From a virus (taxonomy: Duplodnaviria; Heunggongvirae; Uroviricota; Caudoviricetes): DNA of 21,446 nt. The stretch lies in the IMG/VR virus record IMGVR_UViG_2671180360_000006. One strand, given 5' to 3'. The first letter of the stretch is position 1. Every line of letters starts with the position of its first letter. This document shows positions 9,001-12,000 of the stretch, in pieces. Position numbers: made by a program.

Positions 9001-12000
9001 GCCATCGCGGGAGCACCGGGAAAGGACCACCACATTGCGGCGCAGTTTTCCCCTGCGTACCGGTGCCCGTGACACCACTTCTTCTTTCAGCACATTCGCA
9101 CCCGCACGGGTTGCCTCACGCAGCACCCGGTTATTTTCCGCACCACTCAGAAGCTGCAAATCGCGGCTGATGTCCTCCAGCCCCGAAAAATCCAGCAGGG
9201 TTTCGATCATTTTTCCCCTCCCAGCCGACAGAGAATTTCCAGACGCCCGCCGGTCGCATCCGGCACGGGCAGCCCGACAACGTTCAGGATCCGGTCACGC
9301 CATGGACCACTCAGCACATGAAGTCGTGACGCTGCCGTGATTTCCCGGCCGGACTGACCGCGCACCCAGATGCGGATTTCCGCCTGCGCCATTTCCGCAC
9401 CGGACTGCATCCGCTCCCGGCTGCTCCTGCCACGGATATCCGCATGAATTTTCCCGCATGACACCCATTCTTCCGTCATTTCTCCGGCAGCATTACGGGT
9501 TAACACCGGGTTCAGAACACTTATCATCTGTGTCAGACGACCTGCAGATATTGCCATTCCTCCCTCCTCATAACACCGTCGGACAACGCAAATCGTAAAT
9601 CAGCACGGACACAGAAAACGGCAGTTCCCCCTGCACGAGGTCTTCCCGCTCAGCAAGATCCGGATTCCGGTACAGCATCCCGGTCAGTCGCATGGCAGCC
9701 CCCTTCATCCGGGTTAATGCCTCGCCCGGGATCAGCTCACCGTCCTCACGAATCACTTTATCCCGGCTGCCCTGAATGTAGGCCAGCAGCACGGCGGTAG
9801 CCTGACGAACCTTGTCCATCAGCATGTCATCATCCGCGTCATGGTCAACACGCAGATGTGCCTTGATCTCTTCCAGTGTCAGTAATGCCGTCATTTTCCG
9901 CCTCCTGCATCCCGTCCACGTTTTGCAGCCAGGGTCCAGCCTGATGAATGAGCTTCTCCGGGTTTATCACCGGTCATACTGTTGCAGTGCCACAGCGAGC
10001 CCCCCCACGTCACCGTATCGCCGGGGTGGTAGGTTTTACCGGCTCTGAACACACCGCGGTAGAGCATCACCGGCAGGGAAAATGTTTTTTCCGTACACTG
10101 GCCACTGCTCTGCCGGATCACCACAGAGAACAACCGCTCATCCGTCATGCTGACGTCGATATCCGCCACCCCGTCAACCAGGCATTCCCATCCCCGCATC
10201 CCGTGCGTTTTTTCATACGCCCGCCAGAGTCCCCCCAGGTGTGTGGCATACGTGCCCCGGGGAAAGGATTTTTGATCGTCAATAGCGGGGAGCACTTCCA
10301 GTGCCGTGGCATCACGCCCGTCCTGCGGAGCCGGAAGGGCATTCACCGCCTCCAGAACCGCCTGCTTCAGTACTTCCGGATCGTAATCACGACCATCACG
10401 CGGAGCAGGGATATGGCTTACGGCCTCTTTCACCATCTGCTCAAGCATCGGACGCACATCATCGGGGGTGATACTTTTGCCGTCCGCCGGTACCGGAATA
10501 TTCGCAACCGCATCATTCACCGCCTGCTTCAGTACTTCCGGATCATAATCACGACCGTCACGCGGAGCAGGGATATGGCTTACAGCCTCTTTCACCATCT
10601 GCTCAAGCATCGGACGCACATCATCGGGGGTGATACTTTTGCCGTCCGCCGGTACCGGAATATTTGCGACCGCATCATTCACCGCCTGCTTCAGTACTTC
10701 CGGATCATAATCACGACCGTCACGCGGAGCAGGGATATGGCTTACAGCCTCTTTCACCATCTGCTCAAGCATCGGACGCACATCATCGGGGGTGATACTT
10801 TTGCCGTCCGCCGGTACCGGAATATTCGCAACCGCATCATTCACCGCCTGCTGCAGTACATCCGGATCATAATCACGACCATCACGCGGTACCGGAATGG
10901 TCCCCACAGCGTCATCCACCATCGCCTGCAGAACCGGATGTACCTCATCCACCGTCACATGCTTCTGTAATACCGCCGACAGGGAAGCCAGTTTCTCTTC
11001 AAACGCTTGTGCCTGCGCGGCCATCTTCCCCTCAAATGTGCGCTGTAAATCCGCCAGCACCGTGGAGAATTCTTCGCCCAGTGCACGAATAATGGACAGT
11101 TCCCGTTCCGTCATTTTCTCAGTATCCCCCTGAACATCGCTTTCACTGCATCATGCTCTGTTTCACTGATTGCCTTATTACCGTCAGATGCGCCGTCAGG
11201 CAGTTGTGCTGAAACTGTTTTCCCGGCCGACGCGAACGGGTCCTCACGGGCATCACGACGGGACAGCGCCTCCAGACTGTAGTTCTGCTGCTGAAGATAC
11301 AGTGCATCACCGCCGGCAAGGGGCGGCAGGTTCTCACGTTTACGGGCCTCATTGGGCGTGAGAAGCGTATTTTTCACCGATTCACCCAGTGTTTTCATGC
11401 GCCGTTCGCTGTCCATTCTCAGCAGCGTGGTGACGTCAAACTCCGTGCTCTCGTTTTCCCCCGTTTCCAGCGCCTCATCCAGTAACAGCTCAATAGACTC
11501 AATCAGCGTCTGCAGACACTGGGAATAATACTGCTGCTCCAGCGCCTCCACGTTGTCACTGGAAGGCGGGTGGCCAACGCCAATCTTGTAGGCCGGGACA
11601 CGGAACACCGAACAGACAATTTCAGCCGTCATTTTCAGTTGTTCCACCGTCTGCGCATCCACCGGTGAAAACGTCGTGGGGCTGTATTTTGCCCCGTTGC
11701 TCAGTATGGCCGTCTTCCCGGCATTTTCGCCCGTATATCCGCTGTCCCAGTTCCCCTTCAGTTTTTTCGCGTTTTCTTCCGTAATACTGCCGGGGACCTC
11801 AATCACGCCTGATGGTCGCCCGCCATTTCTGAAAAAATACGTCGAATTTGCCTGAATATGATGCCCCTGCATGGCGGCCAGTCCTGCGGCATACACCGGC
11901 GGCAGCCCCACAAGCGGATGAAAAAAACAGTTAAAACGGTCGTGGATCACCTCCCGGGCAGGCACCGTCACCGACTCTGTGATCCCACAGTTCCGGTCCG

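Follow-up and report, generated by a model that had tools for sequence, protein, structure and literature searches.

A variable-number, in-frame 162-bp tandem repeat in a gene adjoining the portal gene of Stx phages and related prophages

Protein-coding variable-number tandem repeats (VNTRs) are found in phage virion genes, as in the collagen-like and other arrays of tail fibres and in the length variation of tape-measure genes. In these genes, units of high DNA identity, each a whole number of codons long, follow one another head-to-tail in the reading frame, and whole units are gained or lost between close relatives, so that a rod or spacer segment is altered in length. The array described here is alike in all of these respects, but the protein that contains it (hereafter X), an uncharacterised partner of the portal, belongs neither to the tail fibres nor to the tape measures, and its unit is a 54-aa helix-loop pair, whereas collagen-like arrays consist of G-X-Y triplets.

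To our knowledge, the C-terminus of the portal protein lies in the crown, inside the head, in all solved portals. The C-terminal barrel of P22-type portals and engineered C-terminal fusions to T4 gp20 are examples of polypeptide carried on this terminus and projecting into the head interior. Relatives of X with a run of six G (G6) represent a natural C-terminal attachment to the portal of the same kind, although X has no sequence or fold relationship with either example, also occurs as a separate polypeptide, and is only presumed to lie in the interior. The minor head proteins of the MuF/SPP1 gp7 type are likewise encoded immediately downstream of the portal gene, and SPP1 gp7 binds the portal inside the capsid (PMC5576092). 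Both gp7 and X are portal-associated (X on the evidence of fusions) and modular, with a portal-proximal N-terminal part and a variable C-terminal part. However, X has repeats and an end resembling carbohydrate-binding modules of the CBM5/12 type, whereas MuF proteins have MuF or toxin domains, and neither PF04233 nor PF06152 matched X in a Pfam scan (E ≤ 0.01). X is a positional analogue of MuF/gp7 and not a homologue. In the searchable literature, neither the repeat nor X nor the split and fused states of the portal gene were found described, and no virion proteomics, structure or genetics of X was found.

The repeat array and the protein that contains it

The window analysed here is a 21,446-nt stretch of a Caudoviricetes record in IMG/VR (IMGVR_UViG_2671180360_000006). 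The first-pass annotation of the window had noted three and a half near-identical copies of a 162-bp tandem repeat at 10340–10900. Tandem Repeats Finder (TRF) reported a period of 162 bp at 10357–10889, with 3.3 copies, 97% matches, 0% indels and a score of 1010; with a unit of this length, such a score cannot be due to chance. A second repeat search recovered three in-register copies (10345–10625, 10507–10787 at 96% and 10669–10949 at 88%), and in the coding register of the minus strand the unit boundaries fall at 10662–10823, 10500–10661 and 10338–10499. The observation was thus confirmed, and the extent and the copy number noted at first reading were accurate.

The units lie head-to-tail and in frame within the minus-strand ORF of X (Table 1). 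The peptides encoded by units 1 and 2 are identical, their DNA differing by two synonymous third-position changes, and the divergence of unit 3 is confined to its last dozen codons; a remnant of the repeat follows the array at aa 260–282. The pN/pS ratio within the repeat units was 0.16, which indicates purifying selection. The 162-bp repeat is an in-frame protein-coding VNTR. A plus-strand ORF of 340 aa (9948–10970) was rejected as a by-product of the stop-free repeat, because homology, PHROG matches and third-position substitutions all favour the minus strand.

Table 1. Features of the portal–X–Ad1 region, in window coordinates.
Feature	Position	Strand	Remarks
gp6-like head-tail adaptor (Ad1)	9568..9894	-	immediately downstream of X
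Gene X	9891..11114	-	407 aa; a second "phage portal protein" in databases
Conserved C-terminal domain of X, with stop codon	9891..10337	-	aa 260-407 (148 aa); beta-sandwich, then CBM5/12-like module; AF2 pLDDT 81
CBM5/12-like sub-domain	9924..10064	-	about aa 351-397
Full repeat units 1-3	10338..10823	-	162 bp = 54 aa each; aa 98-259; IPVPADGKSITPDDVRPMLEQMVKEAVSHIPAPRDGRDYDPEVLKQAVNDAVAN
Diverged, older leading unit	10824..10958	-	aa 53-97; DNA similarity reaches 10949
N-terminal helix of X (~52 aa)	10959..11114	-	helix at residues 3-52 in low-confidence AF2 model
HK97-family portal protein	11111..12475	-	454 aa; PF04860 E=2.3e-79, TIGR01537 E=3.6e-109
G5 tract near end of portal gene	11126..11130	-	G6 relatives read through, giving a portal-X fusion of about 859-861 aa

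X consists of three parts, namely an N-terminal helix, an acidic helix-loop spacer formed by the repeat, and a C-terminal beta domain. Each 54-aa unit is acidic and comprises two half-modules, in which a short amphipathic helix precedes an I-P-x-P-x-D-G-(K/R) loop. The full-length AF2 model was built on a shallow alignment and reached a pLDDT of 41; only its secondary-structure pattern was used, and since a model of this reliability does not establish a fold, none is assigned to the repeat module. The C-terminal end shows the small beta fold characteristic of CBM5/12. Known counterparts are the chitin-binding modules of Serratia ChiB and Streptomyces ChiC (PDB 2rts, 2d49); glycan binding by X is putative. 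The score of X against Pfam CBM_5_12 (PF02839) was 19.8 bits, below the curated cut-off of 26.2; a homologue (P0128) scored 28.6 bits, and many further homologues carry a precomputed PF02839 match. The beta-sandwich ahead of this module had no match in the PDB, and sequence and profile searches of solved structures returned no homologue of X, only designed helical repeats and CBM-like fragments. Sub-threshold matches of X to TetR_C_35, DUF4244, FliG_N, iPGM_N, baeRF_family2 and Mre11_Halo in Pfam/NCBIfam were driven by repeats and helices and were discarded. A role in defence was also rejected: the QatB profile (PF28083), precomputed in many homologues, gave only a faint match, and PADLOC gave none.

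The C-terminal domain was found in 5409 representative clusters, in which the region ahead of it ranges from 57 to 1091 aa, and it defines a large family without a curated model. Of 67 species-level loci examined with TRF, 19 have in-frame tandem repeats in the spacer, with periods of 36–309 bp; in Pantoea, Pseudomonas and Caballeronia the period is again 162 bp. This repeated expansion of the spacer by tandem duplication in unrelated bacteria suggests either selection on spacer length or an unusual freedom for it to vary. The repeat is in itself a feature of an ordinary kind, but the gene is interesting and unstudied, and it pointed to a very large protein family for which we found no experimental study.

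Linkage of X to the portal gene and its proposed role

X directly follows the portal gene in all 59 loci with a detectable portal (69 loci from 67 species analysed), and the order portal–X–Ad1 is kept from E. coli to Halomonas, Burkholderiales, Rhizobiales and Acidobacteria. This position suggests that X is a structural gene. Despite its database name, X was rejected as a portal protein: profile scans found neither PF04860 nor TIGR01537 in it, and the upstream ORF has both. X owes the name to relatives in the fused state (e.g., PHROG 2271). The X gene also adjoins the neck genes Ad1 and Hc1.

The two genes occur in a split and a fused state. In E. coli, a G5 tract, as in the window, leaves X split from the portal, with the ATG of X overlapping the portal stop codon (ATGA), whereas G6 fuses X to the portal; both forms are maintained. 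The split form was the commoner state (52 of 81 loci). Isolated phages represent both states, with BP-4795, 1717 and FSL SP-016 split and 2851 fused. Fusions of X to the portal were also found in Pantoea (L111), in Acidobacteria (L133) and in the homologue P0143, and fusion to the portal C-terminus has taken place independently several times. For the C-terminal domain, split lineages gave a pN/pS ratio of 0.19 and fused lineages one of 0.16, so X is under purifying selection in both. Truncated X was present in 5 of the 29 fused-lineage loci and in no split-lineage locus; the fused state might be partly degenerate.

We consider it likely that X is tethered to the portal and that its spacer changes in length by slippage of units or by unequal recombination. 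Its N-terminal helix would be seated at the portal, and the repeats would determine how far the C-terminal binding domain extends. Because of the portal fusions, X is perhaps located inside the head and not displayed, as the first-pass annotation had it. The data establish the repeat and its reading frame, the copy-number variation, the purifying selection, the gene order, the fusions and the CBM-like fold; contact of X with the portal, its oligomeric (probably trimeric) state, its position relative to the capsid, its ligand and any influence of spacer length on phenotype are inferred.

It is possible, though less probable, that X is instead an external trimeric fibre of the neck or collar (a "whisker"), anchored at the junction of portal and adaptor, with the repeats as a variable shaft and the CBM5/12 tip binding a surface glycan of the host or the environment. 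The succession of N-terminal helix, variable shaft and C-terminal knob is fibre-like, and features of this kind would suit an external fibre better than an internal protein; the gene lies beside those for the neck, and several homologues swap or lengthen their loops with collagen triple-helix repeats (PF01391; E = 3e-21 in P0128, precomputed in P0328, P0378 and P0148). Besides its likeness to CBM5/12 modules, the C-terminal fold is similar to caps found in BFVD on collagen-like fibre and tail-fibre proteins of phages. A Pfam scan detected no runs of G-X-Y triplets (PF01391) in X of the window itself. An external fibre is difficult to reconcile with the repeated in-frame fusion of X to the portal C-terminus, the end noted above as lying in the crown inside the capsid, with the persistence of purifying selection on X after fusion, and with the fused form carried by the isolated phage 2851.

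A more far-reaching version of the portal-tethered reading is speculative, and we regard it as rather improbable. X would represent a widespread, previously unrecognised class of portal-tethered accessory proteins in HK97-like siphophages with a fused protease-capsid gene, with up to twelve copies (possibly four trimers) hanging from the portal crown inside the head. The acidic, adjustable spacer would end in a domain of the glycan-binding type, and its repeat-set length would tune a step in the packaging or retention of the genome, or in the delivery of DNA and protein. If so, a domain released with the DNA could possibly engage peptidoglycan.

Interpretation of the G5/G6 tract

A programmed −1 ribosomal frameshift at the run of G might bridge the split form, so that G5 phages would make both a 454-aa portal and a portal–X fusion. 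If the glycine tRNA slipped by −1 on G GGG within the tract, the product would indeed be exactly the peptide of the G6 relatives (...MFRGDTEKMTEREL...). Such frameshifting was judged very unlikely because the junction (AGG GGG ATA CTG AGA AAA TGA) contains no canonical X XXY YYZ heptamer, the zero-frame codons being AGG GGG ATA. Furthermore, the ATGA overlap already supplies ordinary translational coupling, and junction sequences differ in distant relatives. As a separate observation, the tail-chaperone gene of the window does carry a slippery A AAA AAG.

The automatic annotation by PGAP, in which the G5 form is entered as a "frameshifted" phage portal protein and the G6 relatives have an intact protein of 861 aa, implies a different history: the split form would be a decaying pseudogene of one long portal gene, and its repeat region would be junk subject to drift. 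This interpretation is hardly tenable, given that the split form with its stop-start overlap is the commoner one, is shared by distant relatives, among them Halomonas, Salmonella phage FSL SP-016 and the majority of the 67 species loci, and by the isolated phages BP-4795 and 1717, and retains an X that is truncated in none of the split-lineage loci and has a low pN/pS ratio. The G5/G6 tract misleads automatic annotation, so that a two-gene arrangement that is probably functional is recorded as a frameshifted pseudogene and X is named a "portal protein".

Copy-number variation among relatives

The first-pass annotation had proposed that the array had expanded recently at a recombination-prone locus, that its copy number is likely to vary between strains, with an effect on protein length, and that assemblies may collapse it. 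In relatives, the number of units ranged from 0 to 6 and the length of X from 245 to 569 aa. Intact X proteins in 80 IMG/VR relatives measured 353, 405/407, 461, 515 and 569 aa, successive alleles lying 54 aa apart, and zero-unit alleles of 245 aa were present in complete genomes on contigs of 5.2–5.35 Mb. Among the best 40 phage records, match spans indicated three units in 21, two in 15 and one in 4. This series of homologue lengths contradicts an invariant unit count across related prophages. Relative to the window, the near-isogenic Stx1a phages LC744185 and LC744178 show exact deletions of 162 bp and 324 bp, with only 5–8 SNPs in 3.1 kb, and parsimony on an 81-tip tree counted 27 changes in copy number. 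Both the variability between strains and its recency were supported, as was the consequence for protein length. Among complete E. coli genomes, 1247 had a match, at 9999 places.

Assembly artefacts (collapsed or expanded repeats) have a negligible chance of accounting for these differences, for although short-read assemblies struggle here and many contigs stop within the array, length variants recur in closed E. coli chromosomes (match spans of 1601/1602, 1439/1440 and 1278 bp) and in complete phage genomes (3101, 2939 and 2777 bp), the 245-aa alleles come from the megabase-sized contigs noted above, the isolated and independently sequenced phages BP-4795 and 1717 encode X of 461 and 407 aa, and the array (486–533 bp) is shorter than typical long reads.

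Whole units are gained and lost because neighbouring units are nearly identical in DNA. Slippage in replication, or unequal or ectopic recombination, would add or remove units, and the partners in recombination may include the several lambdoid prophages that reside together in one host. The frame is never broken by such events, and the resulting alleles of 245–569 aa differ in spacer length alone. Identity between units reached 100% within an array (four identical units in locus L042) and averaged 88.6% between loci, a pattern that shows homogenisation of units within arrays by concerted evolution. The copy-number variation could be phenotypically neutral. The natural allelic series of 0 to 6 units provides a tractable handle on the function of X.

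Long-tailed Stx1a, Stx2c and Stx2a phages, together with their many lambdoid relatives in pathogenic E. coli, carry in the array a built-in length marker. The array is also a point at which short-read assemblies break, in line with the earlier concern about assemblies: thousands of contigs in draft assemblies end within it, and partial proteins that start in the last repeat unit derive from very short contigs, with 1456, 665 and 650 member sequences behind P0319, P0318 and P0322, respectively.

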